From the NCBI GenBank assembly GCA_046563655.1, contig CM102283.1:682001-746000 (forward strand): a stretch of DNA of 64,000 nucleotides, read 5' to 3'. The DNA comes from Yuukianura sp. NJ FZ-2021. Its lineage: Eukaryota. The notes below the pieces were generated by a model. The model saw nothing but the letters and a program-made list of their open reading frames with translations, was not told where the DNA came from and searched no databases. Numbering within the stretch: position 1 is the stretch's first letter; every line of letters begins with the position of its first letter. The position numbers were made by a program, and so were the translations under genes. Below, piece by piece: positions 2,309-37,104 of this stretch.

Positions 2309-5300
2309 ATGTTTCGTGGTGGTGAGAGTACATGTTTGCGATGTGCTGATACGGTGTATCCAGTGGACAGGTAATTTTAACCTTGTTTTAAATACGCGCT
2401 GGCGGCGCGGATTTTAGTACTGCTTTTTAGAAATTTTTGAACCGACCAAATCACGATCAGTTTTTGGGGAAAATGAGAAAATAACTTTCGGTTGCGGTTT
2501 CGCTGCGATGTGTTTTGCTTGGGACTAATCGCGACGAAACGAATTTGCAACGTAAAAAGTATTGAATTCGGAATTACCAATTTCACATTGACAATTTGGT
2601 GAGGTTTGATTGAAGTGAAAGACGGAAGTTATAAATTGTGTGGTTAGAGTGGGGACCTCGTGCCTTGAATAACTTAAGGAACGACGATTTGAAATGTTGC
2701 ATAATTACGCAATAGCTGCGCAGAATATGAGCAAAAGTCAATTTTGTTGTAATTTGCATTAGTTTAAAAGTATAATGTGACTTAATTGTTGTTTTTTGTT
2801 TATGACAGAGTTGGTCCTCTCAAAGACTTTTCCTTCTTCCATTCCGGCTGTTTCAAGTGTGTTGTTTGCGGAAGTCGCCTGAGCCTGCGCACTTACTACC
2901 ACTCACAACAGGACCAAGATGACAAGGAAGTCTACTGTATCAGTCACGTGCCCAAAACAGGGCCAGGGCATCTGGACGGCTCAGCAGTCGGCATACGATC
3001 CGCTCTTAACGTTCCACGGAGTTCATCTTATGTGAACGACCAGGTAACCTTGATTTTCAAAAATTTGAAATCTTGTTTGATATTTTTTAACACTTTTGAA
3101 AAATTTGATTCAGATTCGTGGTAACTCCAAGGGGACGTTTGATGCAGACGCTCTCAATATCAAATCTGTAAGGAGAGAAAATGGATCGTCGCCAATGTTT
3201 GACCGCAGCAGTTCTCCCAGTGTCCAGCACCAATTTCAAAATTCCCACCAATTTCAACAGCATTCTCATCCACAACAGAGTCAAGCACAAGGACGTCCTG
3301 GACGACCGCGTTTTGACGCATCGGCACTCCACATTGCGCATGCGCTGCGGGCCACAGAAATCCAGAAAGCGTACAAGAAGGAGAAACCCATGCATTACTA
3401 CTTGGTAAAAAGCAGTTTAAAAAACAACAACATTCCATTTTTGTGTGGGAATTTGTGTGGTTTCAGGTAGCTGTAACTGGTTTTCTTTACATAAAAAAAG
3501 TGAAACGGGATTGATGGGTTGTCATTGTCGATGTGACAGTTGAATGAATGCATTTTGCGGTTGTTGCTAAACTTTTTGCAACAATTAACAAAGAACCACC
3601 ACATTCCTTTTGTTGTTCAGTTATTAATAATTCATGAACAGGCCAAAAATAACGGTAAAATGCATTTTGTGGAAGAATTTGTCTAAGGTGTGAAAAATAT
3701 GCAAAGAGGAAAAACTTGTTTATTAATTTACGATTGTTGTCGATTTATTACCTGTTTGTGCTTAATCGCTGTATTTTTCTTCTTAGGCAAAGGAAGAACA
3801 AACTGAATTGGAGATGCGGCATCGCGTTGAAGAAGATGCTTTGTATAATCGCTTTGCACAAGCCAGAGCGGAAGAAGAAGCCAAAATTACTGCAGAAATT
3901 CGCGAAGAGTGGGAGCGGGAATTGGAAAAATTGGCGTCAAAATTTGAATCTCTCCGAGTCAAAGAGGATCCATTTATGGTACAAAAGCTGAAAGCGAAAG
4001 AACGCGAGGATTTGGAGAGGCACATGACACTGAGGAGAGACAAAAGGAAGGAACTTACAACCCGAAAATTATTGGAACATGAACGGTAAAACTCAAAAAA
4101 AAAATGCAATAATTTTTTATTTTCATGAACGAATTCTGGAATTTATTTTCATTTTTGAATTTTTAGCGCCGCCACGGCCGCTCTGGTTGAAAAGCAGAGC
4201 AAGGAAATGTTGAATTTGATTAACGAACGGAAACGGGAGTTCATTCAGCGCGTTGGCGTAAGCAGCGAAGAGTTGCCGACTCACGAAACAGAACTTTTCC
4301 CGTACCCACCACAAGCTCCACCCCCTGCTCCGTCCAGCATTGAGAAAGTGGATATTTATGGAGACCCGGTGGAATTTTCTGAGGTGGATGAAATTGCCAT
4401 TTCAGTGGCACAAGAAGATCAAAAGACTTTTACAGATTTGGTTCGTAAGTTGCTGAGTCGCTGTGGAACGGATGTCGAAAAAGCTCGGGTAATTTTTCGG
4501 TGGATTACGGTAAAGAACTTGAATGCAATGGATTTTAGTGAAGACGTCAGAACAGACACACCCATGGGGCTGCTTCGAGGCATCAAACAAGTGAGGAACT
4601 TTTTCAAAAAAAGAAAAAATCAGTTTTTCAAAAATGTTTTGTTTTGTAGGGAACAGAAAGCTACCATGTTCTGTTTAAGCGTCTCTGCTCCTACGCCGGC
4701 CTCCATTGTGTTGTCATCAAAGGTCTCTCGAAGTCCGCCGGGTATCAACCCGGACTTCGGTTTTCCGATAACAGATTTCGAAATTCGTGGAACGCCGTGT
4801 TCGTTGCAGGAGCCTGGAGGTAAGCCTACTCTGGTAATAGTAAAATTAAAAAGAAATTTGACCTTTGACCACGATTTTTGTGCAGATTTGTTCAGTGTAA
4901 TTGGGGAGCCCGGCACTTGGTCAATGCCAAAGAACGAGCTTCAAAGTCCGACTCCCTTCGTTACGAATACGACGACCACTACTTTCTCACTGATCCCAAA
5001 GAATTCATCTTTGAATTCTTCCCACAACAAGCCGATTGGCAATTACTCAAAAGACCAATCACAATTCGCGAATTTGAAGAACTACCGTTTGTACGCAGCC
5101 TCTTCTTTCGCTACGGTCTGTACTTTCCATCAGGCCAAAGCAGTGACGGAGTCTACAACAGCCTTGGAGAAATAATTTCTCACTGCAAAGCAGTTATGTC
5201 CACGGACTCTTCAGGTTTTGATTTTTTTTTTCAAATTTTCAAAATTTCTACATTTCGAAATTGTTTTCTTTAAAATTTTTGTGAAATAATATAGGTGCTG

Positions 5301-6288
5301 CGACGGTGCGGATTGGAATGCCTTCCCAGATGGAATCTTGCCTAATTTTTCATTACAATTTGAAACTGTACGATACGGAGGCAGACGTTTTCGATGGTGT
5401 GAGTCTGAAGCGATTTGTGATGCAAAGCGTTGCTCCGCCCCTCGTCTCGTTCCGTGTCCACGCTCCAAGCTCTGGAGCATTCCTGCTTGATATTTTTGCA
5501 AATGCAGTCACTCCAAGGGAGTACTTGACCGGAGAACCAATGAAATTCAAATCTGTTTGCAAGGTAGGAAAGAATTTTTTAAAAACAAATTGAGAAATTT
5601 TTGAAACTATTGAAGTGCAGTTAAAAATGAAATGCAGTTAATGCAGATAAAAAAAATTCTTCATTTTAATTTGCAGGTTAAAATTGAATGTGGAAATCTT
5701 TCCACCGTGATGGTGCCTCTGCCAGACTGTGCCTCTGGAGAATGTGAGGCAAACCTCACTGATCAAATGTTCTTCTTTTTTTCAAAATTTTAATTTTCAA
5801 CAAAATTTTTGAAATTTTGAACTTAGGGGGCCCTGCTAAGGCTACTCGACTATTTGGCCTAATTCCAATTTCGCATCCCGATCCACTTGTCTTTGCTGGT
5901 AGAGAGTTGACCCTGGCTTTCAGAATGTCACGACCTTTGACCGATTTCATGGCCACGCTGCACAAAAATGGAACGGACGGAAAGAAATTAACAAAGTAAG
6001 TTCAATTTAAAACTCTATTTTTCCATACTAGTTTTAATTGCACTTTTATATAAAAAAAAATATTTGCTCTACAGATTTACAAGTCAAGTTGTAAGAAACG
6101 ACGAAGTAATTTTTACAATAAATTTTCCGGAAGAAGGGCAATATGGCCTGGACATTTACACGCGAGAGATCGACGGTCATGAGGACCAATCGGAGAAACA
6201 TTTCTACACTCCTCCGTCCAGTGGCAAGCAACTTCTAACGCACTGCTGCAAGTATCTCATTAACTCATCCAAAAAGAACGTACTCTGA
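2309..6288 (+). CDS. Hil: Hillarin-like protein (N-terminal LIM domain, coiled coil, transglutaminase-like/KY domain), multi-exon
   Basis: First exon MFRGGESTCLRCADTVYPVD (2309-2370) splices to RVGPLKDFSFFHSGCFKCVVCG (LIM). Later exons give coiled coil (EIREEWERELEKL), KARVIFRWITVKNLN, FRNSWNAV, CNWGARHLV, YEYDDHYFLTDP, FPEEGQYGLDIYTRE and LTHCCKYLINS*. Confidence 0.9.
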
Positions 6289-6520
6289 CTCACAACGTAA
6301 CAACGGCTTAAGTTTAGGAAACATTTTTAGTAAAATTGTACAACCTCCAACATTTTTTAATCCTCAGGTCACGTACTTAGGAAGGGAACATTGTACACAA
6401 TTCTTGATACTTTCTAATAACTTACGGTGATTATAGAAAATACTTTAACCTCATAAAACTCTGGTCACGGCTTTAAGTTTTGAAAAAGAAAATTCAAAAA
6501 AATCGTCTAAGAAATCAAAG

Positions 6521-9500
6521 TTACCGCTGTTTCGTTTTCTTCCAGCCTTTTCCAAATTTCTTCCCTTTGTCTTGGTCAGTTTTGGTCTTTTTTGACCCCT
6601 GACCTTCAGCACTATCCTCTTTCGTCGTCAACCTCTTTTCGCCTACTTTGATACTAATTGACTTGGATTCTGTTGAAGTCTGAAGAGCTTGTCGCCAGCT
6701 CTCCTCGCTTCCTTTGATAACGTACTCGCTCAAATCAGCCTTGCGCAGTCGTTCCAACTCCTTGGCCTCTTTGCGACGTAATTCTTCAGCACCAGCCTCT
6801 AACTCCGCCCCTAAACTTTCCGCCAATGGCTTGAAGGCCGGAGTGACGTCCTCTGCTTTATTCAAGTTTTCTTCCAGTGTATCTTCCAGCAGTGTGTTCA
6901 AAAACTGCAGAATTTTTCGGATCGTTTTGTTGAAGAGTCCCAGTAATTGAGTTGCCGGCAGATCAAGCTCCTTCCCTAGCGTTTCCACGGTTTTCTGTTG
7001 CAGGCCCATTCCAAGCAAAACGGCCTAGAGGAAAAAAGAATTTAAATAATTTTTATACAAAATTCACTCGTTTTTAATGTCAATAAGGTTTGCATACGGA
7101 TTGAACAGCTGATAGGTGTGTATCTGCCAGTTTGCCGAGGAAGAACAATTTGGCGAGTGTTGGGAGTAGATCCATGATGAGATGATAGTCTGCCATGTTT
7201 TTCGTGTAGACATCCAGTCGCTTGAGGTCAAACGGCGTGAGGTGAACTCTCAGTTCAGGGACAGTGAGAGGCTCTGGTATGCCAATTGCTTGATTTTTAT
7301 TTTGAAGAAGACTCATGGCCAGAGCTGGTTCAAATGAACTAAACTGGAAGGAGAGGAGGGAGATAAAGCGACGTCTGAAATCTGTCCAGAAGTCCTGCAG
7401 CCACGACCCGCCCCTCTGCCGAGTAGTTTCGTTCTCCAGTTTCTTGAGCATTATGCACGTATGTTCTCCGGTCAAATCATTCGTCGTTTGCCTACAGATT
7501 ATCCAATAATTACTCTTCATACCTCATGTTAGTAAGTTTTTGTTTTTTTTTTTTTTTGCAAAGTTACCAACCTGAGGTAGACTGGTGTAAACCCTGCTCT
7601 CTTCCAGAACTTGAGTAGTGGAAGTGTCACGCCATAGGAAACTCCTAAATAGTCTAACACTTCTGGAGCTCGTTCACTCAGCTTTAGCAACAGAGGTGGC
7701 AAGTTTTTCCTTGGTTCTAGAATTCAAAAATTAACATGGTTAATTACACTAATAAGTTGCCCGCGTGATCCTTAACTTACCGATTGTTTCCTGGAGGAGG
7801 CTCAGCTCCTCGCTTTCTACTACTTCTGCGCTCTCCTTCCCAATTTGAGCGTCCCCGCCTCCAATGTCTATCTTTTCTTCGTAATAATCTTGTAAGAGAC
7901 GAAGGGCTCGTGACCCATACCCCATTGATTGGTAGTCTGAATGAGTAGCAATTCGAACAATTCTAGCTCCAGATAGAGACGGAAAATCTTGATCTTGAAA
8001 CTGCTGTGCTACTGTCCAGGGAATGAGATCTCCAGAGGCCCTTTTCCCTCTCGACAGTGCATCCACTACACTTCGTTTAGAAATCTCACCCTCCAGAGAA
8101 ACCTAACAAACCAGGGACAATGTTAACATAAAAACTTCGTCCAGCAAAATCGGATATGTCTCAGATACTACCTGAATGAGAGCCAATACTTCCGGAAGAG
8201 CCTTTTTGTCTGGATTGACTGGACCAAGGAGACAAAAAAGATGATGCGCAGGGGCATCGCTCATCATCTGGAGGTCATTCGGGGAGTTCTGGAAGGCAAT
8301 AACAAAAATGAAATACATTTCGACTTTCGACATGAATTTTGAGAAGATACTGCCAGTACTTGTACTGAGGTGGCATTCGAATATTATAATTTGGGTCACC
8401 TTATAATGAGAAGCGACGTAGAGTGACACAATTTGCTGAAGAAATGCTTCTGAGGCTTTATGGTAGCAGAAGAGCGTATCTCTGTTGATGTAGTAAAGCT
8501 CGCAAGAAGCCGGAGACGGAAGTCCAGTCGTTAGAGCAGGAGGATTCGTGGCATCAAGGCACAAGACGCCGTTGAGCCAACTCTCCACACCATCTCCGTC
8601 TTTGTAGCGAATCGATTCCTCCAGCGTGATCTAAACAAAGACAACAACAAAAAAGACAATCAGATAAACAACTAACATAAATTAGTTTTTAAACACCCAA
8701 AGAATGTCTACTGCATAACCTCTGTGAGAGTTCGTCCGGAAATGACGGAACGGTCTTTCTGATTTCCTTGTTGAGCTCTACTACCGCTTTGTGTCCGCAG
8801 TTGCTGGATAAGTTTGAGCGACAAAGACCGCCCTGTTCCTTCGTAACCTTTGACAGTAGAGGCCAAGAAGATGAGGCAAGGACCAAAGAGGGACTTGACG
8901 AGAGGAAGTGGAATGGCTGCCGCTTCATCAATTACAACCAACTCAGCATGCCCAAGCTTCGCACTCTCACTGGGATGGATATACTGCAAAGTTAATAAGA
9001 ATTCCGTTTTTTTTTAAATTGCAAGACAAACCAATGCGTATATCTCATTTCATACCTCAATGCATTGTCTGTGATCCCGAAAGAAGGACACTCGCACAAC
9101 GGCCTTCACATCAGCTTCTTTCGATTCCGTAATTTCATAATCAATGTGTTCTTGGTACTCCAGTACATCAAAACCTAAGCAAATCAGAAACGTTAAAAAC
9201 ACGAAGAGTCAAAGTTTTCGTGCACAACTAAAAACACCAACCTTTTAGTATAAACTCGAATAAGGTTTTCAAGTTTTCGGGACTGGGACTCGTAACGTAG
9301 ATGTTGGAGTAGCCGAATGCTATGGCTCCCGCTATTGCAAGTCCTAATGCTGCTGATTTTCCTCTACCACGTCCAGCCGTCAAAGACACAGTCCCAGTCA
9401 GACTCTTCTCCGACAAAACGTCAATAAATTTTAAAACTGCTTTGGCTTGATCCAGAGTTTGACAGCAGTTAAGGAGGACCCCAACTGGCTGCGTGTCCTT

Positions 9501-10602
9501 TAGACTGTTTTTAAGCTCAGCAAGCTCCAGGTCGTGAGCACTCTGTCGAGAAAGACTGGGATCCACGGGTTGAATACTCGCCATGGACGATGAAATTGGA
9601 AGGACGTTGAGACTGTCGTCGATGACGAGGCAACTGCGACATGAAGCAAGAGAGAGCAGGAATCTAGACGAAGTCGAATGAATTCTGTGGTTAAATACAA
9701 AGTACACAGCTCATTCGTTGATAGACAAAGTAAGGGTAAAAATGTCAGAACGGAGTATCGTCAATAAAATCGGATATATGCTTGTCTATTGTAGTTCATC
9801 ATGGTTTACTTACGCAATAACAAAACAGAAAACAAAAAGCATGATGAATTCGTACCTTTCATTAAATCTGCCAACGACATCTTGATGAGCTTCTGTTCGG
9901 AACCTGGCATGAACATCCATACTCATTGTATACAGCTGCTTGAGTGAGTCCATTGTTCTGAGAAGGACAATGACGAGTCCGCCGCCTTCAACAGTCTCCA
10001 CTGTCCTTGCCAAAAGATTGGGTGTCATGGCTTCAAAGTCTTGAAGTACACACATGCCAAAGGTATTTCCAAGGATTTTGTGTGTCTCCGAGTAGTAGCA
10101 GTACCGAATGTTTGTAGAAGCAATGAACAGCTCAAACGGATCGTCCTCGTTTACATCCACCTTTCCGCTCTGGATCTTCCGTTGCAGTTCTCGCATTCTT
10201 TTCTTCCGGTGACTTAAATTTGAAGATGGAGAATTACATTTATTAGTCAACAAAGTCTAAAATGTTACACTTTTGGAATTATGTTGGGACATCACCTGCT
10301 AAACCCTAGTTCCTTTTTGTAGCACCAAAGGACGTTCGGACGAGCTTTGACTGCTGCTTTTGACAGCATATGATGAAGAATAACCACCTAATCCACATAC
10401 AAATTGACCTTTACGAATGATACATTGACCACAAATTATTGTTATTTTTGTACTTCACAAATCAAGATAAGTACTGAAATAATTTACACCTTACCTGATC
10501 TTTGCCTTTATCCCCTACCACTACAAAGAGGGAGCGATGACCTTGTAGTATCCCATTCTCGATTAGAACCCGAATACGATTGTCCACCTTTTTCCGAACC
10601 AT
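6521..10602 (-). CDS. NAT10: RNA cytidine acetyltransferase (NAT10/Kre33), about 12 exons
   Basis: Starts MVRKKVDNRIRVLIENG. Contains ILGNTFGMCVLQDFEAMTPNLLARTVETVEGGG, Walker A TAGRGRGKSAALG, DEAAAIP, GYEGTGRSL, acetyl-CoA motif RIVRIATHSDYQSMGYGSRA, a tRNA-binding region (NMADYHLIMDLLP) and a Lys-rich tail. Confidence 0.97.
9740..9808 (-). ncRNA. Intronic box C/D snoRNA, SNORD27/snR74-like, predicted guide for 18S rRNA Am27/Am28
   Basis: Minus strand reads ATGATGA (box C, 9796-9802), actacaat, AGACAAGCATAT, at, CCGA (D'), TTGACGA (C'), tactccgtt, CTGA (D, 9745-9748). The 12-nt element is complementary to conserved 18S 5' AUAUGCUUGUCU, and the D'+5 rule lands on A27 (human numbering). It lies in the longest NAT10 intron (9664-9855), ~80 nt from the acceptor. 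Confidence 0.88.
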
Positions 10603-13242
10603 TTTATTACTCAACAAAAGTTAACCAATTAATGAAGTTAAAATGAATTGTGCGCATAAAATGTGTAGCGTCACGCAGCTTTCTTTCTAGATGTAACCTT
10701 GTAAGGTACCTACCTAAGGCACTACTGCATTTACTAAGCAAGAAGTCACCACGCTTTAGTAGATCATGCCACAATCGAACATCAAAACATAAAAGATACG
10801 ACTATTCCTAAGACTTATTGAATGGGGTAGTCGAATCCTGAGATCTGCGGATTCGCTGTCTCTTTTAATGAGTGGTTTGGTTAGACAGATTCACTTTCAC
10901 GCGATTTCCCATAAGACTAGGTGCATTTCCGTTGTAATTTATTGTATAATTTCGTTGTAATTCATTCTGTAGTGAAATAAGGCCTTTTAGCCCCAAAAGA
11001 AAAAAAAAACGAAACAACACTACAAGTTTAGGTTGTCCGCTTGTTGCGGAGTCAATGAACTTTTTATTCAAAGTAAAAATGAAAATGAAAAGGCAGTTTG
11101 ACCTCGCAGAGGTCAAACCGCGAGTATTAAAAGTCAACTCTGTTCCAAGCAGAACAGAGTCACAGTGTAGAATGATGATTTGTACGAGGAGTAAAACATG
11201 AACAAATCTAACTCCAAATTAAAATATTTGTAAAGCAAAAGTCTAAATTTAAACGTAAGGTCAATGAAGTACTCTAGTTCTAAGTATTTACATGTTTGTG
11301 TGCAAACTTTTGTGAGGAAGCAAAAGTAAGGTTGGCAGTGTTGACCACTGCACCATGGTTACCTCCTAGCCCACAAGAGGCTAACAACCAGACTTTGCTT
11401 CCTCCGTGCTATTGGACAGAATATTAAGGAATCGTAATTTAATTATTCATTTCTTTGAAAGAGAAATCGCAGATTAGATGAATTCAACCGAGCTTAATGA
11501 CAGAATGAACAAGGGATCTGAATCGCTAACGTGGTTGGTTGTAAACCTTGGTGTTTAGCTGAAAGTCCAAGAATTCCGAGTCCGCCGATTAGGGAGGCCG
11601 GAGACCAGAGCGCGACAAGCAATCTAACAGTCTGGTACTTACACATCCTCTTAACGCCACCCAATCGCAACTTAAGAGCGACACTGGTCGGTAGAGGCTG
11701 CGGCCATAACTCATCATCAGGGTTACAAAAAATATCTTCTTATCAATATTTTATATGTTTTCAATATTCTGGTGTTTACATAAATATTCAATATTTATTT
11801 AAGCGTAAATATTTAGTTAAATATTCATAGGACTTGTAGAACAATACTCCCAAAAGTGCTTCAGAAAAAGAACAGCCTACTTTCGCTTGTATAACTTTGT
11901 AAGGGGTTTAAACGGCAAATAACCCCAGGGTGAAAATTTAAAGAAAGGTATTTTTTTCGACTAAATCAGGATATTATATAGACTAAATTAGGAAACTCAA
12001 AGTTTCGCCCGGGGAAATATGTTCTAAACATGCAAAAGTGCAAAGTCGCTTCCACTTGCAACATTTCCTAAACAGGTTGCGACATGGCCGTTCTCAGTAC
12101 TATGGCTGGTCGCTCCAGGGAGCATCTCCTCGATTCACGACCGGGTCGCATCAGGATGCGTAAGAGGCACAGCATTTAAGGAATCTTAGGAATAGTCGTC
12201 TATTCAACTGTTGAATTTCAATATCAACTGGCTTCATTTGGCATTGGCTTTGGATGGTCGAAGGTCGTATTCACTAGTGGAGCGGGCACATAAACCTAAC
12301 CACATGTGGAATTAAAATGGTGTAATTTAGTCCTTTGCATACTCCCACTCTCTCTCTCAGGCTGGTCCAATTCTTCAACCTCGCTGGGATGCGGGATACC
12401 GATACCACATCAACGGAAGGTTATCACTCCTTGTGCAATAGTATTGGTAAATATCAATTTATCTCTAGCAGGAGATAAATATTTCGATTACAATTGGTTT
12501 TGTTACTTTTCAGCTGATTCTGCTATTTTAAAGTGAAGGTATCGGAAGAAAAAAAAAGCGACAACTACTACGACGGAAGATTCCAGGCAGAAACTGCACG
12601 AGAACGTCGCGTAAATATGAATGACGATTCCTTTCAAATTGCAATAGAGCCTCTTTCCAAGGTTGCTATAGCAACCAATTGTAATGCTACAAGGCTACAA
12701 GGTACCTAACCTTGTAGCAATCAACAATCTGTTTGTTTACCCACCTTGCCTCTGTCAACTGTAGGTTCAAGGAATATTACTACCAGCGATCTATTATTAG
12801 TAGGACTAGGAAACGCAAAATCATTTGGAAACACACTTCGGTATCGGCCCTACTACCTGACTTTGCCATGAGTGAGATCACGCCTACTATTTAGTCCTCT
12901 CTGGAATGGAGAGAGGAGACTGTGAAAGTCTGTAAACTCGTCCTAGCTGTCCGAACCACGCCTTACGCATCACTTACGCCACTGCACACGCTGAGTTATA
13001 GTTATCATCGTGCGAAGTTCCCAGCAGAAGCTCATAATTATGTTGTCAGATTTAAAGGTAAATAAGTATTTTGCCTGTTTCCTTCTCTAGTGCCTAATTG
13101 GTCGGTCAACGACTCGGTTTTCAGAGCGTAACTTAGGTTTTACGTTTGTTAAGGTTAGGACAACCTTAACTAACTTGCGCTCTGAGAAGTATGGCGCTAA
13201 ATGAGTACTCAGCTCTAGTTTCTAATATTATAGTGCCATTTA

Positions 13243-13320
13243 AAAGCACATGATGATCAATCAGTCATTAGACAAGCATAAATCCGATTTTATTGACCAT
13301 ACTCCGTTTTTATGCCTTTA
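13243..13320 (+). ncRNA. Second SNORD27-like box C/D snoRNA copy with degenerate D box (possible pseudogene)
   Basis: ATGATGA (13250-13256)...AGACAAGCATA aat CCGA tttta TTGACCA tactccgtt TTTA. The core is nearly identical to the NAT10-intronic copy, but box D is TTTA instead of CTGA. Terminal stem aaagca/tgccttt. Confidence 0.7.
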
Positions 13321-13655
13321 AGATTAAGCTTGTATAGGTTTTGGGTTTGGCGTTATTCCAATCTGTTACATAGTTGTTATTGATTGATTATGAGGTCTGA
13401 GTTTTCTTTTGTTTCCTTCGTTTAACCTGTCGCTGCGTCTTTTTTTCTTTAAGCTCCTGATCTGCGTCAGTGATGCCGACGTACTCATCTTCGAACGCTG
13501 AACATTCTTCCAATTTTATCTTCTATGGTGCAACTCATTCAACGGACTCACCTCTCTGTCACCATACTACCGAACCGTACCGAGGTATACAATTAGTCTG
13601 CATATATGTAAGTGTTCAAACGTATTTTGATTTTATTTGCCACTGGTGGGCAACG

Positions 13656-13722
13656 CACGAATGATGAACATCAATAGACAAGCGTATAGCTGACATCATT
13701 GACGATAATTTGTTCTGATATT
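13656..13722 (+). ncRNA. Third SNORD27-like box C/D snoRNA (all boxes intact)
   Basis: ATGATGA (13661-13667), acatcaat, AGACAAGCGTAT, ag, CTGA (D' 13690-13693), TTGACGA (C'), taatttgtt, CTGA (D 13715-13718). The guide keeps 18S pairing through a G:U wobble. It sits between a GTAAGT donor (~13608) and a pyrimidine-rich AG acceptor (~13814). Confidence 0.85.
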
Positions 13723-14469
13723 TTTTCCAAATAATTCAAATTTAGTTAATATGCACTCTGAATTATGCTTTACTTTCTTGTATCTAACCGTGGAATTCTT
13801 TTGATTTTCGCTAGGAGCGGCGTCATCTACGATACTCCAAGATCTACGTCGGGAGTCCCAGTAACAAGTCGGAATAAAACGTCAAAAGCTCTCGCTTATG
13901 AGAAAGGATGGAAGTCGACCAACAACACGTTATTACTGCCATAGATACATCAACTCGACTGCGAAGCGTAGACTCATTGAAGGAATTTCGATGAACACTA
14001 GTATGTATCTGTTATTTGCTCATCAGGATGTTGTGACCAGAATCAACGGCAGGTACTATAATCCATTCTGGTTATTTGGATTCTAGTAATTGCTTTGCAA
14101 GCGTAACTCACCGTCAGTTATCAGCAATACGAGTTAATTAAGCAAATTCATTCCTAATTAATCTAAGAACCCAGTTCAATTTCCTGCTTGACATGCTCAT
14201 ATTTGGTCACAAATGGGTCAGTCGTCGGTATTAACAAATAATTTTTATTGAACACTCACATATGGCTTATATATAGGTTCATGTTTTAGTTAACTTTTCC
14301 TCTCTTAATGTACTAACCAATGAGTGATGGATGAGTTGAGAGAAGAGTCGTTTGTGGAGGCTCGGATATAGGCACGTTTTGTGCAGTGGTATCAGCAGTT
14401 TTCACTGCTGAACAGGGGAGATAATCCGTTAGGTTAGGTTCGCCATGCGTATTATTATCATATATTCTA

Positions 14470-15050
14470 CAGTGAGGTCCAGCTAAAAGAGTACACCTAA
14501 AATATAAAAAACTTGTTTATTTTTGAAACCAAATAAACTATGGGAGGGGGAAACAGGCTACATATTTCATGTAGCATTGCCCATTTATGTTTCCCTCGAA
14601 GAAGAGGTGCAATGCTGGTGTCACCAATAACGCCAGCCCAAACGTTGACCTTTGTGGCATTTTGAGATTTGGTTGCTCTCATCCATTGAGGATTCGAATC
14701 TCACCAATACCTAGTCAATAATTTAATGCTTAGTTTTATTTAAAATCATATCAATAAGTTTTGTAAATATTACAAACCGGAAGTTCTGGTGGTTCATGCG
14801 ACCATTCAAAAAGACAAGACCAGGGTACTGCATGCACATTTTCATCATTTGGTCACAAAATTCAATTTTTTTTCGGATCGTTCTGGGTCAAGGTTTGATG
14901 GAATTGGACTAATATAGATGAAATCTTTAAAGTTGTAGAATTCTTTTTACAAAAGTTCTTGAAATCCGTGAAATAGGTCTTGTTGAGACATTTAGATTCG
15001 CAGAAACATAGGCTAAAATGGATTGTAAAGATACTTGTACTTGGAATCAG
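14470..15050 (-). mobile_element. Decayed Tc1/mariner-superfamily DNA transposon remnant
   Basis: TA-CAGTGAGGTCC terminus at 14468-14480. Fragmentary transposase motifs FLNGRMNHQNFR and NPQWMRATKSQNATKVNVWAGVIGD occur in broken frames. Confidence 0.65.
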
Positions 15051-15658
15051 AAGATTCGGATATACACCAATGAAACCAATGAAAACTGTGCTTTTCTAAA
15101 ACTCGACTGTTGATAGTAATATGCAACCATCTCGGCACGATGCTGAGTTATATGCTAAGGCATTGGTACAACGATAGAAAAACGATAAGCGTAAGAAAAA
15201 GGAGTTTCGACAGTCGAATTTGTTGCTGCTTTTAAAAAGAAAGGAAATACAATTATCAGAGGGAAAAAAATACGGAAAAATTTTTTCTATTGACTCGGTC
15301 AATCCAGCAGCATGGAGCAAAGTCCTCGCCATGTCCTTGACATGGCGAGGTTGGCTCTTTCTGCTCTTCCGTTTGATTCGGGAGAGTAAGCGACGGTCGT
15401 CTCGTGAATAATTCCTTTCTCTTCAACATAATTATTAATTGCTTGATTTTCAAATCCAGTGGCGTTATCGCTTCTGAAAATCTTCACTGGTCTTCCAGTT
15501 TGCATTTCTAAAAATTTGATTTGGTTGATAACGCACTATGGAATATCAGACTTCTTTCATGAAATGAACAAATCGAAATCTTGAACCTTCATCTGGGAAA
15601 AGGACAAATTATTGATTTCCAGGCAATGATTTTGTCGGCATTTTTCCAACTGTGTCTG

Positions 15659-16146
15659 TGTGAGCGGTTTAAGCGGGTTAAACCACTCACAATCTAAGGG
15701 GCAATAGGCCTATAAGTATTAGGTTATATCTGGGCCCAAAGCTACTTTCTGGCGCAGTAGCCAATACTGGGATAGCTCAAGGACTGCTCAAGCACTGGTG
15801 AAGTATTCCTCGAGTAGGGAGTTTTCTAGATCTCAAACATAATCCTCTCAACAGCTTTATCGTTTATCTGACGTTGATTATAGTTCCGGAGTTTGAGTTT
15901 ATCTCAAGATACTATAGTGCTATTCTCGAGGCATCATTCACCGCTGATTACAGTCAGTTATATTTGAATAGTGTAGATATAGATTCAGGAGGCCGATATC
16001 TGTTTAGTACGTTATGAGAGCTCGGCATCATTGGTTTTCTTGGCGGCTGACGTATTCCGAGTACGGAGAAACCTGAACCGGTGAGTTCCCAGAAGTCCTT
16101 GCTGGCCAAGCCTGCTTCTGGAAGTATGCCTCCTAAATAGGTGACA
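15659..16146 (-). mobile_element. Solo LTR, family A (TGTCAC...CTCACA), 5-bp TSD GTCTG, inserted in the copia integrase
   Basis: GTCTG at 15654-15658 and 16147-16151. Removing the insert restores GEMLHADTVGKMP in frame. Homologous to 20658-21487 in the opposite orientation. Confidence 0.85.
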
Positions 16147-17171
16147 GTCTGCATGAAGCATTTCTCCAGGTTTCAAGTTCCTGTTTGGTGAAAGTTCTGG
16201 AAATGGTTTACGAGCCTCTTCTCCAATTTTGCAATCTGAGCAATCAAACTTTCCCCTTCAATTGATCAAGTGAAATTCCTGTCACAGTTTTATTCCTGAC
16301 AGTTTCCAGAATGTACTGAAAATTCGCATTAGCCAAACGCCGATGCCAGAGTTTGGAATCTTCTTTCATGGCTGATGAAAGTGATTTCAGCTAATTTTCA
16401 TATGGTCTGAAATTCATCTCATACATATTGTTTTTCTGGGTAGCAGTGAAACATGAATTTCCACTTCGAAATAAAAATTCCGTTTTCTCTTTGGTTCTGA
16501 CAATCTTAAATCATTTCTTCGTCATTGCAACTTCACTGAATAAGTTTGTCGCTCCAGGAACGTAAAAACCACCTGAAATTGTCCACTGAATCTACTTTCC
16601 TTCAATCTAAGCTTCCGGTTCCACCGTTCCTTTTCCGAGTGATTCAATTGAACCCTTGTCAGTCAAATAAATCAACTTCGGATTCGAAAATTCTTCAAAA
16701 TTTTTGAACCAAGTTAAATTTCCGCAAATGCTCCACGAGTCGTTGCTCCAGAATCACTAAACAAATGTTAGTGTCTCTTTCATTTTCTTCTGCCATGTAA
16801 GCAAATGTAGAGAAAGTAATGTCTCCTTTCTCCTGGTTTATTCTTTGTTGCGGACTTTCCCCATGAGGACTTTCTTTGCGTTTGTTCCTGCAGTGCTTGG
16901 CAGAATGGTCCATTTTGAAGCAGATTCTGCATTGACCTGGTGCAGCTTTCCTTTTCAGTCCTATATCCGGGTTTGATTTGCAATTTTTCGCAAGATACCC
17001 AATTTCTGCCACGACCAACATCTAATTCCGCCACGACCAACATCTAATTACTTTCTTCCTATTCGGGTCTTCAGTTTTCGAAGTCCCATAATTTTTGAAA
17101 CGGGGTGAATCTTCGAATTATTAAAATCTTTAGAAAACCGTGGCTCTAATGAAAAACTGTTGGCAATTTTT

Positions 17172-18146
17172 TGAAAATTACCAATAGCCGAGGCCCCCAG
17201 GCCTCTTCGGGTCTAAAACCCGCTCACCCCTCGTGACCTGTTGACCCCCCCCCCCCGGGCCCTTAAGGAATCTCCCTACTCATAATGACTCCTGACCGAG
17301 GTGGGCCTCACCCGTGTCTACTATACTTTCTGGAACGGATGCCCTAACGTTATGTGAGGTCGGCCCTACCGGACCCACCTGCTTAGGCTCCATGCTGAGC
17401 CATAAGCTAACTAAGCCTTAGATCTACAGTAAATGAAGCTTATTTCTTTTACCTCTGACAGCTACAGATGAAGCCTCGCGATGATAAATAAGGCGGAGAT
17501 GAATTTGTAGAGTTTTATTTCCCCGATAAAGTGACGAGTGAGACTTAATCTCTAGAGAAAGTTCTTCCTAACAGAGCTTGAAGAAAAGCTAATTTGAAAA
17601 TGACTTTACTTAGTTTCTAACAAGAAAGCGAATTTAAGATTGACTTTACAAAGTCTCTAGCAAGAAACCTAATTCAAGATTGACTTAACTTCTATACAAT
17701 TTCCACTAGTATTTATAACCTAGATCTTGACCCACGCTATCCTCAAGGTTTGACCATCCTTGGCAACACCCTTGGGACTCAAGTCCGTGATCAGACGTTA
17801 ATGACCAAGATTTATGATCCAATTCAGTCATTAATGTCTGATATCAGACAAAGTTGCGATCGTATGCAAATTGACAACTTGTTAGTTTGCATTGGAATCA
17901 TTCGTTGACAGGCTGATTCCCCATGCTCAACAAATGTAGTAACTTGTTGAGCAATTTACTTTGTTGCGTCAGCCTTTTTCCTATCTGTAAGTTGAAAAGA
18001 TCATTTCCCATAAATCATTGCAAAAGTGACTTTATCAATTTGCATACTCGTCTTCTAATCTCTAATTTTGCTTAATTAACATTAGTCCGATTTTGACTTA
18101 TCCCGAAATTTACGAAATCTGGGATGATTCAAAATCCGACGTTACA
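17172..18146 (-). mobile_element. Solo LTR, family B (termini TGAAAA...CGTTACA on +), probable 4-bp TSD TTTT
   Basis: ~1-kb non-coding insert between the copia gag and Zn knuckle. Internal ~33-bp tandem units (aagaaaagctaatttgaaaatgacttt). Clearly similar to 19088-20142 and ~21860-22588. Confidence 0.7.
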
Positions 18147-19087
18147 TTTTGCTACACTTCATGAGGATTAGAAGAAAAATCTTGGTAGTTTTAGAAGTTC
18201 CAAGAATTCCATCAATCAGTCTCTGGTCCAACTCTTCTTTCATTCAACCTTGCCAAAAGGTTAATTATCGTTTTTGAATCTGAGTCCCAAGATTTCTTAA
18301 ACGGCTTAAACGTTGGATCTGGCATAGCAGAAATAATTCTGGATACTACTGCCGCTTTCTTCATTGGAACATCAATCTCTTCCAAATCTCTCCAGAGATG
18401 CTGCTCTGCGTACGCTTCAATTAACTTATTCTCTGGCGAAGTTTCAAAGCCATAAAAGCTCATAAGCGTCTGTTCACATTTACAACGCTTGCGCCTGAAT
18501 TCAAATCTTTCAACTTCGAATACATTTCAAAAGAAGTTTTACATGTAAAAATGTGTGAGACCTGATTTGGCTTTAACGTTGGAACTATGATCGCTATTGC
18601 CTGTATGTCCTTCTGGTCCCACTTTTCCTGCTTCTTGTCGCAATCATCGACTGCAGGTTTCTTCTTTTCTCCAAAAGCAATTTGCCACAATCCCATTGAC
18701 TTTAAGTACAATAAAATTGACAACTTCCAATGCGAAAAATTTGAACCATCCAACTTCACAAGATGCTTTGAATCGATCACACTTATTGCATCCAGTGTGT
18801 AAAAAGTTCATAAATTCATTGTTGAATTTTCTTCTTTTCAAAGTACCTGGTAACTTTAAGGAACGGGAGTTCATTAGATCTGATATAGTTTTGAACAACA
18901 CGAACAGTTTCACAAGGAATCTGTATTATCGTCGGTTCCTGATTTCTAACATTTTGACTTTTTCTAGATTCTTACATAAATTGATAATGAAACAACTTTC
19001 TCTTTTTCAAGTTTCAACAGAGGCAATTTGACGAACCTCCCAGAAAAGGAACAAAACTTTTCCTCGCCTTTAACACTAATTATTCTC

Positions 19088-20142
19088 TGAAAATAATTAA
19101 GGCGTTCTAGGCATCCTACCTATTCGGGTCTAACACCCGGTTGTTCCTAACTCTGAGACGATCCTTCCGGGCCCTCATGACATTCCTAACTTCTTATGGC
19201 CTAATCCCTTGGGTGGGGCCGGTCCCACCGGACCCACCTATGCCTACGGACAATAAGTAGATGACGGTTAACGAGCATTTGTTCACCTTATACAGCTGCA
19301 GATGACTCCCAAAAGTTGACTCGTGATGTCTTTTTGAAGAATAAACGGATCTGAAGTGGTTGGTGACAGTGATGTATTTTACTAGTTTATTTTCCCCAGA
19401 GCTTCAACATTTCCCCTTGAAGATATCCTTTCCCTAGCTTAACGAAAGTGGCTAATCTGCCAATAAGAACTAACTTAGAGAGAGAGAGAGAGAAAAGCTA
19501 ATTTGAAAATGACTTTTAAAAGCTTGAAAAAAAGGCTAACCTAAGACTGACTTCCTTAGACTACTTCTGAGCAAATAGCTAACTTAAGAATGACTTCTAA
19601 AAGCTTGAAAGAAAAGCTAATCTAAGACTGACTTTTTTATTTTCTAACAAGAAAGCTAATTTAAGATTGACTTAACTTTAACAGAGTTCCCACTAGTATT
19701 TATAACCTAGTCAGTAACCTACTCTGTCCTCTAATTCTAATTACCCTTGGCAACTTGTGTCCGCAATCGGACGTTAATGACCAGGATTTATAATCCTGTT
19801 TAGTCATTAATGTCCGATATCAGACAAAGTTGCAAGAGTATGCAAATTGACATCTCGTCAATTTGAATTAAAATCACTCGCTTTACTTGTGACATTACAT
19901 GTCCAACAAGTGTAAAAACTTGTTGGAGAAGTAAAACAGTTGCGTCAGCCTTCTGCTGAATTGTCAGGGCAAAGATCAATTATCATAAATTTTTGCAACT
20001 TTGTTGAGAAGGCGGGTTTTGCCAATTTGCATACATGCTCCCTTTTTCACTCTTATCTCTAATTACTCATAATTAGTAACTCATCCGGATTTTAACTTGT
20101 CCCGAGATCCGAATTTCGGGAGAAGTCAAAATCCGTCGTTAA
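19088..20142 (-). mobile_element. Solo LTR, family B copy, inserted next to the copia PBS
   Basis: Shares blocks with 17172-18146 (ccactagtatttataacctag, gacgttaatgacc, atcagacaaagttg, caaaatccgtcgtta). Flanks tctc/tccc look like an imperfect 4-bp TSD. Confidence 0.7.
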
Positions 20143-20394
20143 TCCCTCTGCTACCACTGTTAGAAAACCTTATAAGATAAATTTTCTAGTGGATGAATCA
20201 ACCCTCTGATCGTAATATCCAAATTTGACTATTGTTCTTTATTTAGTTTTCAAATCAAAATATATCAGCAAAACCTTCTAGTAGCTTCTCTGAGTCCCCT
20301 AACAGCATCTAAAAATCTCCCTTCATTCTGATTTAGAAGTAGAAATGAAATATAATTTAAAATTATATTTCATTTCAATTAAAATTCAATTTCA

Positions 20395-21830
20395 ACATTC
20401 AGGAAAGCTGTGGTAATGTCAAACTGAGACATATTCCACCCTTCTTGTGTTGCTAGTGCCAGCATAAAATTTGGAGCGAAAGTTTCTTCGTAATCCACTC
20501 CTTCGACTTGACTAAAGCCTTTGACTACCAGTCGGGCTTTGTGTTTTTCAATTGATCCATTAGGGTTATTTTTTATCTTAAAACAAACGATTTTGTAGTA
20601 TTTTGCGATTTAATGGTCTGGAGACGAGAATCCAGGTTTTGTTTTGAAGTTGGCTCCTGTCACCCCTAAAAACGGCATACTTCCAGATGTAGCCGTGGTC
20701 AGCAATGACATCTGGGGACTCACCGGTTCAGGCTTCTCCGTACTCAGCATTCGTCAGCCGCCGAAACGACCAATGACGCTGAGGTCTGATCCCTCAGTAA
20801 AACAGATATCGGCATCTATGACCTCAGCTTAATAGGACTGTAATCGGACGTAAATAGATCGACTAAGATAACTCTGACGCTCTCGAACTAAATAAACGCC
20901 AGGTTCGGTAAACGACAAAGTTGTTGAACGTCTTAGGTTTATTGAGATCTAGGAAACTCCCTAGTAAAAAGGACTTCACCGCAGATGTTTAAGATCAGAG
21001 TGCACCTTCAACTCGACCTTCCTTATATGGCTGTTGCCAACGAACCTGGTAGCAGGAGTACAGGTTAAACTAGATCTAGCCTAGAACTATACGGAGTTGG
21101 TGGTCGGACAACCGACGCCACCAAAGTTCAACTGCGCTCTATCCTAACCTCCGACTGTCGCGGAGTCCAGACTCTGACTGACTACATACAAAGAGATACT
21201 CTCCAGGTAAAGGTAGGTACATGACTCATTCACACTATGGGAATGCCTTAGTGCATAGCAGGCCTGGAGTTATCCTGTTCTCGGCTAATGCGCCATAAAC
21301 TGGCCTTGGGCCCAGATAACACATACGTCGTAATATTATGAGAATGCCTCAAAGCTGATAAGACCCTGAGTCAGCCAGCTATTTGTTTATGCGCCATATA
21401 GTGGCCTTCGGCCCAGATAAGTGCTAATGCTTATAGGCTTATTGCGCTTTGGAGTGTGAGTGGTTTAATCCGCTTAAACCTCACACAGCTCCTAAACTCA
21501 TCTTCCATTGCTTCTTGCCATTCATCACCCTCTTCCGATGTGATGGCCTCTTTCTAACTGGAGGGTGTTGTTTCTTCACAAACATTTGTTATTTTGTCGC
21601 TTGATTTTGAGCCGAGCTGATCTTCTCAGTGTAGGTTCACTTGTGCTGGATTTTTCTGCATTTTCGGTAGACTCATTTCCAGGATCTGATTTAATTGACA
21701 ATTGCTCAACATTGACGTACTCTGGATCCGTATTTTCTTTTGATGTTTGTCGTGAAATAATTTTTTATTCTCCATTTGATGACTTCCGTAAAAGAATCTT
21801 GTTAGCATCTGTTTAGAAATTATTTCTTTC
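20395..21830 (-). pseudogene. Ty1/copia reverse transcriptase N-terminal fragment (separate or rearranged copy), split by a solo LTR
   Basis: [41 protein letters not shown] and [10 protein letters not shown] are typical RVT_2 motifs. Confidence 0.8.
20658..21487 (+). mobile_element. Solo LTR, family A (830 bp, TG...CA), 5-bp TSD GCTCC
   Basis: GCTCC at 20653-20657 and 21488-21492. Excision restores the copia RT frame. Subterminal hairpin ggtttaa-tccgc-ttaaacc is shared with the 15659 copy. Confidence 0.88.
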
Positions 21831-21859
21831 TTTCGTTTCCTAAGTTGGCCTAACTTCCC

Positions 21860-22588
21860 TTGTTACTATCTTAATTGAGTATGATCAACCCTAGCTATTA
21901 AGACAACAAAAAGAATAATTGTTCTTTTACCTCCTTTAATGCGAATGTATTCGTCGGGAGTTGGGATACGGTACGTAATACGGCAAAACGCGAAGCCAAA
22001 AACAGCAACAGCGGAGAGTTAGTGTTTTTAGATCTTTATTTTCCGGTGAAGAATAGAGTGACTTAACCCTTAAAAATAGTCCTGGAAAGCTCGCAAAAAA
22101 GCTAATTTGAAAATGACTTACTTTCAATTCGTTTCCCACTGATATTTATAGACTATTTCTTAACCTACACTGTCCTTTAATTTCAATTACTCTTGGCAAC
22201 TTGTGTCCACTTTCAGACGTTAATGACTAGGATTTATAATCCAGTTCGCTCATTAACGTCTAATATCAGACAAAGTTGTGAGTGTAATCCAAGTTGACAT
22301 CTCGTCAATTTGTATGAAAGTCACCCGCTGATGGTATGACTTTTGGTGTCCAACAAGTGCAAAAACTTGGTAAATGTAAAACAGTCTTGTCGGCCTTCTT
22401 CTGACTTGTGAGTGCAAAGATCAATTAAAATTAATCTTTGCAGCTTTGTTGCAAAAGCCAGTTTTTGTCAATTTGCATTTTCGTACTTTTTTACGCTCTT
22501 ATCACTAATTTTTCCTAATTTACAATTCGACTGATTTTGAACTTAATCCAAAATTCAAATCCCGGGAAATTCAAAATCCGTCGTTACA
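21860..22588 (-). mobile_element. Family B LTR, third, more diverged or partial copy
   Basis: Same blocks (aagctaatttgaaaatgact, cttggcaacttgtgtcc, atcagacaaagttg), ending caaaatccgtcgttaca. Left boundary uncertain. Confidence 0.6.
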
Positions 22589-23212
22589 CTGTTACAAGTT
22601 TTTTGACATTAACACTATTTGAATCTCTTTCTCCTTCTTGACGTTTGGGGACCTGAGTAGATAGTATGAGATGCCGTAAACTCCAGGTGCTCAAAGCATT
22701 ACTTAGGAAAAGGTGAGGTGGCAGGTCCCAACCATTTCCTCGTAACTTGCGAGCCCCACGGGCAGTGTCTGGATATACCACGTGCCATTAGGTGTAATAC
22801 CAACGGCCTATAGATTAGCTGACTCGCGATATAGATTGTAGACAGTGGGCTATAGATTAACCAGCTAAGTTTTTGTAGCAAATTCAGTGAATATTACAAG
22901 AAACTAATTCAAGACATTTCTGTCTAAGTCCCCTAGCTCATAAATATCTTTATAAGTGCAAGTGTGAGTAATGTCAACGGTTATAGATTAACTGGTTCAG
23001 TTTATTTTTGGAGCAAATTCAATGGACATTGCTATTACTGGAAACTGAAACTGTTTCAACAAATTATTGTCTAAATCCCTAAGCTCATCAAAATCTATTG
23101 ACTCAAGTCGAAATCTTCGCAACAGAAACCGTAATATAATACTAATTTGCTGCAATACTGGCTGACGGTTTTAACTTTCTCGGCTTATTGTTACCCTTTT
23201 GAGGGACCTGAG

Positions 23213-36134: not shown

Positions 36135-37104
36135 TCACATGTCGAGTCCGATTGCTCCGCATGCGATTCTGGTTCCGGAATTTCCATTTGTATGACTCGT
36201 TGGAGCGCCACCTTTACCACAATCGTCTTTGTTCTGAAAAGTAATTGGTTATTGTAGTAAGAACTAATCTACTTAAAAATAAAAGTTATATAAATTGTTA
36301 GGCTAAACTAACCATGTGAATGACCAGTGCTCGGCCTAGGATTGATTTTTTTCCTGCGTTAAGTGAGATGGATCTGGAGGAAATAGAAATGGACGCAACG
36401 CCGAGTGAATCCGTTTTAATGTTTCCAAGATCTCCGGCATGTCTGGGCTTATGCGGTGGACATCCATGAGCTGTCTGAAATTCAAATTTCAAAAAAAGCG
36501 GAGCATATCAATTTTCTAGACGATTTTTTTTTGAAAGTTAGGGTTGCGCTGACTTTTTTGGGGTTGAAGTGGCCACCAGTAGAGTCGCACATATCCGAGA
36601 AATTTCCGTACTCATGGACGTGGAATCCTAGCTCAGCATTTTTGGGGAGGCCATTGACCTTCCCATTAATTCTCAATTCTCCACCTCTCTCAGTAAGAAT
36701 CAAAGTTCCAAGGAATTTGAAATCCCGTGAATACATGGAACACACTCCAGCATTTGAATCCGTAGGTTTACTGGAACCGCCACGCTACAAGAATCCAATT
36801 CAATTTAACTTTAAGTTTAGAATTTCAATTTCGCTTGTTGTTTTTTTCTAATTTCTGGCTAATTTCTAAATCTTTGTTGCTATTTCCAGCAGAAATGAAA
36901 GTTTTACGGTTTCAATGCCCTCGATTTTTGGGTTCAGCAGTTCAATCCCTTCTGAATATACACTGCAGCTGAAAAATACAAATGCAAGGATACTGAAATA
37001 AAAAAATAAAACACCGAAATTAAAAAAAGCCTTTCTCAAATAAAATTTCCAAAGTTGAAAAGCAAGTAAACTTACAGCACACAGTTTACGTTTAGAATCA
37101 CCAT
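36135..37104 (-). CDS. Secreted/extracellular Cu/Zn superoxide dismutase (SOD3-like)
   Basis: Signal-like N-terminus MVILNVNCVLSILAFVFFSCSVYS. Motifs GFHVHEYG, GGHFNP, AHG...RHAGDLGNI, ILGRALVIH and GNSGTRIACG; all Cu/Zn ligands and both cysteines are present. Confidence 0.9.

Follow-up and report, generated by a model that had tools for sequence, protein, structure and literature searches.

The window analysed here, a 64,000-nucleotide (nt) stretch of the genome of Yuukianura sp. NJ FZ-2021 (assembly GCA_046563655.1, contig CM102283.1, positions 682,001 to 746,000 of the forward strand), contains the gene for the RNA cytidine acetyltransferase NAT10, and an intron of this gene carries an element, el1, which we interpret as a canonical intron-encoded box C/D small nucleolar RNA (snoRNA), i.e., the counterpart of U27/SNORD27/snR74 in this organism. 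Two further copies of the element, el2 and el3, lie upstream of NAT10 on the opposite strand and would have arisen through an inverted duplication of the host segment. We assign this joint reading a probability of about 80%. All coordinates refer to the window; el1 occupies 9741-9807 on the minus strand, el2 13245-13312 and el3 13656-13722, both on the plus strand.

Direct reading of the sequence places all three elements where the initial annotation had reported them. They can be aligned with one another over box C, the guide, box D', box C' and the segment preceding box D, and they are paralogues, of which only el1 and el3 are structurally complete box C/D snoRNAs. In el1, box C (ATGATGA, 9796-9802) is followed by a 12-nt guide (9776-9787), the internal boxes D' (CCGA, 9770-9773) and C' (TGACGA, 9758-9763), and box D (CTGA, 9745-9748). 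The same series is found in el3, with box C at 13661-13667, a guide (13676-13687) in which one A-to-G change relative to el1 retains pairing as G-U, D' (CTGA, 13690-13693), C' (TGACGA, 13700-13705) and box D (CTGA, 13715-13718). In el2, box C (13250-13256) and D' (CCGA, 13284-13287) are present, whereas the guide (13270-13283) has a T-to-A change three positions upstream of D', the C'-like motif at 13294-13299 is degenerate (TGACCA instead of the TGACGA of el1 and el3), and TTTA (13309-13312) stands at the position of box D. The claim of three guide snoRNAs thus holds for el1 and el3 and falls short for el2, since this copy lacks box D. The CTGA farther on, at 13397-13400, was considered as a substitute; the resulting RNA would measure ~150 nt, no stem supports it, and this assignment is unlikely.

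The exact 11-mer AGACAAGCRTA occurs at three sites in the window, all within the three elements. With one mismatch allowed, five sites are found against 1.81 expected, and since 3 of 100 shuffled sequences reach five such sites, little weight can be placed on the 11-mer by itself. What decides the matter is the complete box C/D architecture: the pattern TGATGA-N3-25-GACAAGCRTAT-NN-CYGA-N15-45-CTGA matches the window twice, at 9745-9801 on the minus strand (el1) and at 13662-13718 on the plus strand (el3), and none of 100 shuffles gives any match. The altered box D, C' motif and guide of el2 take it outside the pattern. Single-strand folds of the elements are unremarkable, as expected for box C/D RNAs.

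SNORD27 (RF00086) and snR74 share with el1 and el3 the element order of box C, A-rich spacer, guide GACAAGC(A/G)UAU, two nucleotides, D', C', short spacer and D, as well as a size of ~67 nt. The guide lies two nucleotides from D' in el1 and el3, as it does in the SNORD27 consensus, and this common register predicts that the fifth guide position faces the same target nucleotide as in SNORD27. The el1 guide forms 12 contiguous Watson-Crick pairs with the 18S ribosomal RNA (rRNA) 5' motif quoted in the initial annotation, and the el3 guide likewise forms 12 contiguous pairs, one of them G-U; el2 has an additional mismatch at guide position 3. Human SNORD27 targets A27 of 18S rRNA, which is the equivalent of yeast A28. 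In a table of PMC5699541, Am28 of yeast 18S rRNA is assigned to snR74.

Family membership was examined with Rfam and with a model of our own. At gathering thresholds Rfam gives no match anywhere in the window, and at E<=0.5 a whole-window scan returns nothing beyond the elements, and no rRNA. In a permissive scan of 9400-14100, SNORD27 is the best snoRNA match both for el1 (25.8 bits, E 0.37) and for el3 (22.5 bits, E 2.3), in each case over the full length of the model (1-71/71), and el2 has no match at E<=10. The second model, R1, was built so that membership could be tested without recourse to the vertebrate-centred Rfam seed. Metagenome contigs from the Joint Genome Institute (JGI) were scanned for the family pattern, which gave at least 117 stretches, with 111 distinct matches among those listed; from the latter, 54 homologues were picked by hand, favouring those resembling el1 and el3, and were used for a sequence-only model that includes no sequence from the window. 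Run over the whole window with filters off, R1 scores 44.6 bits for el1 (E 5.8e-13, model positions 4-69 of 72), 40.8 bits for el3 (E 9e-12, positions 5-70) and 25.2 bits for el2 (E 6.8e-7, positions 4-53 only), with 6.1 bits (E 0.62) for the best match elsewhere, a test that is only partly independent since el1 and el3 themselves fit the pattern by which the training set was gathered. Although the scan did not ask for a box C', the T, G and G columns of this box show conservation of 90% or more among the 54 homologues, and el1 and el3 have these letters as well. Among the 111 distinct metagenome matches listed, 41 have CCGA as D', as el1 does, and five have the guide G variant of el3. The U27/SNORD27/snR74 type proposed in the initial annotation is therefore upheld by the top Rfam match of el1 and el3, by the common guide register and by strong scores with the environmental model.

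The NAT10 coding region (6521-10602, minus strand) is multi-exon and apparently intact. With NAT10 of Folsomia candida as the query, tblastn recovers a collinear series of exons on the minus strand, starting at 10602 (residue 1) and reaching 6605 (residue 1004 of 1031), and only residues ~656-694 are unmatched; the Pfam domains TmcA_N, NAT10_TcmA_helicase, GNAT_acetyltr_2 and tRNA_bind_2 fall on successive exons. Exon 3 is 83-92% identical to animal NAT10 proteins, and its best named matches are those of the springtails F. candida (87%) and Orchesella cincta (86%), a similarity that by itself would place the animal, probably, among the springtails or other arthropods. Intron 3 (9664-9855, minus strand, 192 nt) has GT..AG boundaries, and the frame of the flanking exons continues across it. 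It harbours el1 in the sense orientation, with 81 nt between box D and the 3' splice site. The 3' end of el1 is ~50 nt upstream of the predicted branch point TTAAC (A at 9691, consensus read by eye), a distance within the optimum of 40-50 nt between snoRNA and branch point given in PMC10234308. The proposal that one snoRNA resides in a NAT10 intron is confirmed by these same-strand flanking exons and splice boundaries, which also agree with the idea that the gene for an 18S acetyltransferase hosts a guide of the 18S methylation type. Co-regulation had been suggested for the locus as a whole; it is expected for el1, given that a host gene and the snoRNA in its intron share one transcript, and is unsupported as a statement about all three elements. 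A narrow search of the literature on NAT10 and on snoRNA host genes, with arthropod snoRNA-survey supplements outside it, returned no statement of NAT10 hosting a snoRNA in any organism, and this putative host role was thus not found reported.

The DNA around el2 and el3 is related to the same gene. By alignment and translation, 12916-14052 on the plus strand is identified as an inverted, rearranged, non-coding and decayed mosaic of fragments of NAT10 exon 3, intron 3 and exon 4, and the same alignments put el2 and el3 each within a copy of the intron that hosts el1. A search of 9000-15000 for inverted repeats pairs el1 with el2 (93% over 43 nt, 9791-9749 in the NAT10 intron) and with el3 (81% over 68 nt, 9802-9735 in the same intron), and also pairs NAT10 exon sequence at 9874-9912, 9581-9611 and 9282-9311 with plus-strand sequence at 13008-13046, 13498-13528 and 13833-13862, respectively. 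The collinear inverted series (9912-9862, 9791-9749, 9611-9581, 9802-9735 and 9311-9282 to 13008-13862) is reproduced by blastn. Piecewise local alignments of NAT10 with the mosaic were each compared with 500 shuffles. Not one shuffle reached the scores of the exon 3 end against 12960-13058 (63/89 identical, z 13.7), the exon 4 start against 13453-13600 (105/170 identical, z 8.0), the 3' part of intron 3 against 13723-13814, i.e., 3' of el3 and through the acceptor (42/58 identical, z 4.7), and the exon 4 end against 13815-13960 (70/107 identical, z 6.8). The 5' flank of el3 shows no significant similarity to the 5' part of intron 3 (119/500 shuffles reach the score), and for the intron flanks on either side of el2, 343/500 and 430/500 shuffles reach the score of the comparison with NAT10 intron 3.

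The mosaic begins with psi-exon 3a (12916-13057, this and the following pieces on the plus strand), the decayed 3' part of NAT10 exon 3, which is recognised by alignment, inverted repeat, blastn and peptide similarity (43% over 44 amino acids) and is followed by GT (13058-13059) at the homologous donor position. Psi-intron a (13058-13453), bounded by psi-exon 3a and the 5' part of psi-exon 4, holds el2 and ends with a pyrimidine tract and an AG (13452-13453) no more than 1 nt from the homologous acceptor position. The 5' part of psi-exon 4 (13454-13600), the decayed start of NAT10 exon 4, is identified by alignment and by peptide similarity (TLNILPILSSMVQL compared with SLNVLPISSSMASI in NAT10), and three-frame translation shows stops, its frame being interrupted by an in-frame TGA and by indels whose lengths are not multiples of three. 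Psi-intron b (13608-13814) holds el3, aligns in its 3' part to NAT10 intron 3, and has the signals GTAAGT (13608-13613, with an alternative GT at 13585), a branch-point-like CTAAC (13784-13788) and AG (13813-13814). Joined directly to this acceptor, with ~330 nt of exon 4 missing, is the 3' part of psi-exon 4 (13815-13912), the decayed end of NAT10 exon 4 (~9333-9237), for which alignment, inverted repeat and peptide agree (YSKIYVGSPS compared with YSNIYVTSPS in NAT10). The final piece, psi-exon 3b (13947-14052), is a weak match from alignment and peptides to a second decayed and frameshifted exon 3 end, with the peptides AHQDVVTRIN and LRSVDSLKE in different frames and a GT (14053-14054) behind it. 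R1 gives no match up to E 10 at 13723-15045, and no recognisable snoRNA follows psi-exon 3b; a fourth, fully decayed copy at this place, considered on the basis of a weak intron alignment (16/500 shuffles), is not claimed.

The pieces of the mosaic are recognisable as peptides, but in differing frames and with stops. Parental order, four pieces that beat all 500 shuffles and a disrupted frame fit a duplicative (unprocessed) NAT10 pseudogene, and the retained intron argues that the copy is not a retrocopy. The exon homology flanking el2 and el3 points to duplication of a host fragment at the DNA level and not to retroposition of RNA; and since the snoRNA was copied inside host fragments, NAT10 would have hosted it before the duplication took place. 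An old date for the duplication would follow from the identity of the psi-exons to their parent exons, now 62-71%, and from the loss of alignable intron sequence around el2. Local duplication of the snoRNA onto the opposite strand, as put forward in the initial annotation, is confirmed by the inverted collinear NAT10 matches around el2 and el3. The companion proposal of a separate host transcript for these two copies is not borne out, as their flanks are inverted, frame-broken fragments of NAT10 exon 3, intron 3 and exon 4, and the mosaic is thus not an unrelated host gene. Nor do the two copies lie across the NAT10 promoter, as had been described; they are found 2.6-3.1 kb upstream of the NAT10 ATG, beyond repeat-rich DNA and inside the mosaic.

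Between the NAT10 ATG (10602) and the start of psi-exon 3a (12916) there are ~2.3 kb, in which a high pile-up of assembled DNA contigs, with a summed depth far above that of the surroundings and with many variants and indels, is seen at 10859-11160, 11312-11462, 11765-12066 and 12671-12821. These high-depth stretches are probably multi-copy repeats or transposon fragments. The E-box CACGTG, a sign of a shared Myc-type promoter, does not occur at 2951-22778. A bidirectional promoter for NAT10 and the mosaic is not supported, because repeat-like DNA intervenes and this E-box is lacking over that interval. On the 3' side of the mosaic, transposon remnants extend over 14497-19028; they include a copia-type gag open reading frame (ORF) at 18463-18807 (minus strand, Pfam PF14223, E 2.5e-12) and, as judged by eye, an integrase-like ORF (15299-15535), a zinc-knuckle gag-like ORF (16695-17021) and a mariner-like fragment (14497-14700), all on the minus strand.

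Lower-depth contigs also align to the mosaic region (12500-13800) at 80-90% identity with parts skipped, at depths of ~12-14 beside ~25-31 (run X1) and 39-49 beside ~100-115 (run X2). Their joints are at 13052/13180, 13433/13552, 13505/13588 and 13718/13786, and one of them tracks el3 as far as the last letter of box D and picks up again close to CTAAC. Their source could be a second, diverged haplotype or a further paralogous copy. Contigs under a second organism label cover 13102-13606 (six other letters, one gap) and 13652-13925 (five other letters); being nearly identical to the window, they have no comparative power, and the absence of cover over el1 in that run carries no weight in either direction.

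Several results weigh against the combination of a U27-type snoRNA in NAT10 with an inverted duplication of its host segment. The SNORD27 gathering score of 52 bits is reached neither by el1 nor by el3. The sub-threshold scores reflect the distance from the source sequences of the Rfam model, and they do not contradict the shared guide and architecture. Cofolding of the flanks gives terminal stems of -4.8 kcal/mol for el1 and -3.3 kcal/mol for el3, which 79/300 and 157/300 shuffles equal; the minimum-energy fold of el1 does contain an external stem, GUAAA/UUUAC, which is not significant. Being no better than those of shuffled flanks, these predicted energies would neither help nor hurt the identification. 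As for the duplication, the second copy of the exon 3 end is weak (56/96 identical to 13940-14062, z 2.9, 6/500 shuffles), the absence of residual homology in the intron flanks of el2 leaves the extent of the duplicated unit around it (unit A) to be defined by the exon pieces, and the identity of el3 to el1 exceeds that of its flanks by a borderline margin (55/68 compared with 112/165, Fisher p 0.055). The mosaic also has no promoter support from an E-box in the interval scanned.

An entirely different explanation, that the elements are chance matches to short box motifs, would accommodate the unmet Rfam thresholds and the unremarkable folds. It is nevertheless close to negligible in view of the two full-pattern matches that shuffling never produces, the R1 E-values on the order of 1e-12, and the recurrence of the same architecture in at least 117 metagenome stretches. 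That el2 and el3 are retroposed mature snoRNAs (snoRT-like) in unrelated DNA is suggested by the nucleotide similarity between the el1 and el2 introns, which ends at the snoRNA borders, but is very improbable, as homology to exon 3 and exon 4 flanks the copies in NAT10 order and orientation, the 3' part of the intron and its acceptor were co-duplicated beside el3, none of 500 shuffles reached the score of the flanking exon-like matches in any of the four tests, and neither a poly-A tail nor a target-site duplication is seen in the sequence around the copies. Alternatively, a separate non-coding host of the UHG type might carry el2 and el3 in consecutive introns and be transcribed divergently from a promoter shared with NAT10, all three elements being co-regulated. 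The divergent orientation and the GT and AG signals flanking both copies would suit such a gene, and multi-snoRNA non-coding hosts exist, e.g., Drosophila Uhg1, for which PMC4430873 gives 16 snoRNAs. We regard this arrangement as improbable, however, since its supposed exons are recognisable as fragments of NAT10 exons 3 and 4, since the intervening ~2.3 kb include repeat-like stretches, and since the E-box search was negative.

What has become of the two copies is less clear-cut than their origin. el2 is identical to el1 at 50/55 aligned positions (91%), apart from one 5-nt insertion, compared with 168/259 in its psi-exon flanks (Fisher p 8e-5), and this excess over the flanks suggests that constraint or gene conversion acted on el2 over a long part of its past. 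The defects of its box D, C' and guide seem to be of recent date, and judging from them el2 is most likely a dead pseudogene. Over the 58 positions that span box C to box D, el3 and el1 differ at 11, and only three of these differences fall in the 34 box and guide positions (hypergeometric P 0.023). Each of the three is compatible with function: the A-to-G change forms a G-U pair, a T-to-G change affects guide position 1, and CCGA has become the canonical D' CTGA. The snoRNA copies thus appear to have stayed closer to el1 than their flanks did. It is quite possible, at somewhat less than even odds, that only el1 functions and that the plus-strand mosaic is a silent duplicative pseudogene in which the boxes of el3 have merely not yet mutated. 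The broken frames of the psi-exons, the loss of box D in el2, the transposon remnants around the locus, and the borderline identity excess and insignificant terminal stem of el3 all speak for this. On the other side, none of the 11 body differences between el1 and el3 disrupts a box or guide pairing, the donor, branch-point-like and acceptor motifs of el3 are kept although identity in the neighbouring exon sequence is as low as 62-72%, and the 91% identity of el2 within flanks of ~65% calls for long constraint or conversion.

The splice signals that flank el2 and el3 fit a locus that is, or formerly was, transcribed and spliced, and if the mosaic is transcribed, there would be about an even chance that el3 is still produced. 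A more far-reaching suggestion, which we offer tentatively and consider rather unlikely, is that 12916-14052 is a transcribed, spliced, non-coding snoRNA host gene newly arising from the partial inverted duplicate of NAT10. The NAT10 exon fragments would then have been reduced to carriers of splice sites, and selection would keep el3 and, until recently, would have kept el2.

Following the established snoRNA pathway, el1 of the preferred reading, i.e., the NAT10-hosted U27-type guide, would be transcribed within the NAT10 pre-mRNA, freed from the spliced intron 3 and trimmed back to the ends that the box C/D proteins shield. The 12-nt element upstream of D' would pair with the conserved 5' motif of 18S rRNA, and fibrillarin would 2'-O-methylate the adenosine opposite the fifth guide nucleotide (A28 in yeast numbering). 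As to the origin of the copies, an ancestral NAT10 segment comprising the end of exon 3, the snoRNA intron and exon 4 may have been duplicated in inverted orientation ~2.3 kb upstream of the gene; the duplicated segment would subsequently have been partly re-duplicated and rearranged, and its exon pieces would have decayed into the non-coding mosaic.

Compared with SNORD27, el1 differs in its D' sequence CCGA, in the NAT10 intron as its host and in its sub-threshold Rfam scores. The human SNORD27 host is the non-coding gene SNHG1, and the Drosophila U27 copies reside in the non-coding Uhg1 cluster at 54E. The placement of rRNA-modification guides in introns of genes for ribosome biogenesis and translation is a long-established theme. 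According to PMC13228274, 95% of the expressed snoRNAs in Drosophila are intronic and 30% of the host genes encode ribosomal proteins; a supplement to the same paper lists U27:54Ea, U27:54Eb and Me18S-A28a together as isoforms CD5a-c. By that list Drosophila, an arthropod, has three paralogues of a U27-type guide, as many as the window; here, instead, one copy resides in a protein-coding gene for ribosome biogenesis and the others in its decayed partial duplicate. Formation of snoRNA paralogues by cis- and trans-duplication, including duplication into 'a paralogous host gene', is described in PMC2653536. Relative to that description, the duplicated unit in Yuukianura sp. would be an exon-intron-exon fragment of the host, inverted beside its parent and rearranged, and the 'paralogous host' would itself be a pseudogene mosaic. 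Box degeneration, terminal-stem stability and host expression are named in PMC10234308 as determinants of snoRNA expression, and box loss as a route to snoRNA pseudogenes.

The metagenome homologues allow a comparison of hosts, with flanks of up to 2 kb for 80 of the at least 117 stretches and as little as ~300 nt per side for others. NAT10 coding sequence was found beside 0/117 of the loci listed (tblastn with three NAT10 proteins), so that hosting by NAT10 is not general; the loci listed are probably mostly fungal or protist, and this negative does not bear on arthropods. The homologue most similar to el1 among those listed (L058, 2001-2057, minus strand), near-identical to el1 in its 5' half (box C, guide and D' CCGA), is intronic and in sense orientation between exons of an Avl9-family gene (PF09794, E 2.9e-17 to 1.1e-6 for three flanking ORFs). 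Its host is protein-coding like that of el1, but it is a different gene, so that organisms differ in the gene that hosts the U27-type family. Several metagenome contigs have two or three U27-type copies in tandem, with spacings of ~90 nt (L092, L100 and L045) or 0.5-1.2 kb (L025 and L026); these predicted copies show a clustered organisation of the U27-type guide in other eukaryotes.

On the other side of NAT10, the plus strand carries a cytochrome c heme lyase exon (425-772, PF01265, E 5.4e-21), a weak LIM-domain match below the Pfam cut-off (2786-3121) and three ORFs with a KY-like Ig-like domain (PF23265, 4869-6285), two of them above the Pfam cut-off. The plus-strand exons up to 6285 run toward the 3' end of NAT10, and the two genes thus converge. 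Farther along the window, Pfam searches of ORFs identify cytochrome P450 exons (34549-36018, plus strand), a Cu/Zn superoxide dismutase exon (36485-36784, minus strand), an arrestin-domain gene (50717-51568, minus strand) and an exon of a rhodopsin-family G-protein-coupled receptor (59931-60347, plus strand); at 42317-47128 on the plus strand there is a large ORF with spectrin repeats, close to one with a weak GAS2-domain match. A crude box C/D scan picked out a 123-nt stretch at 60223-60345 (minus strand) in which boxes C and D are accompanied by a terminal stem of 4 bp; the receptor exon overlaps it on the opposite strand, neither Rfam nor R1 supports it, and it is probably a chance match.

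Our present analysis leaves the understanding of box C/D snoRNA function unchanged, and the duplication history is instructive and not surprising. It adds a previously unannotated candidate orthologue of U27/SNORD27 to a poorly annotated animal genome, and the arrival of the extra copies together with host-gene fragments would date the hosting by NAT10 to before an old duplication. The locus offers a side-by-side comparison of one maintained copy (el1), one possibly maintained copy (el3) and one decaying copy (el2), and if the mosaic is transcribed, it would provide an example of how non-coding snoRNA host genes of the UHG/GAS5 type can originate.

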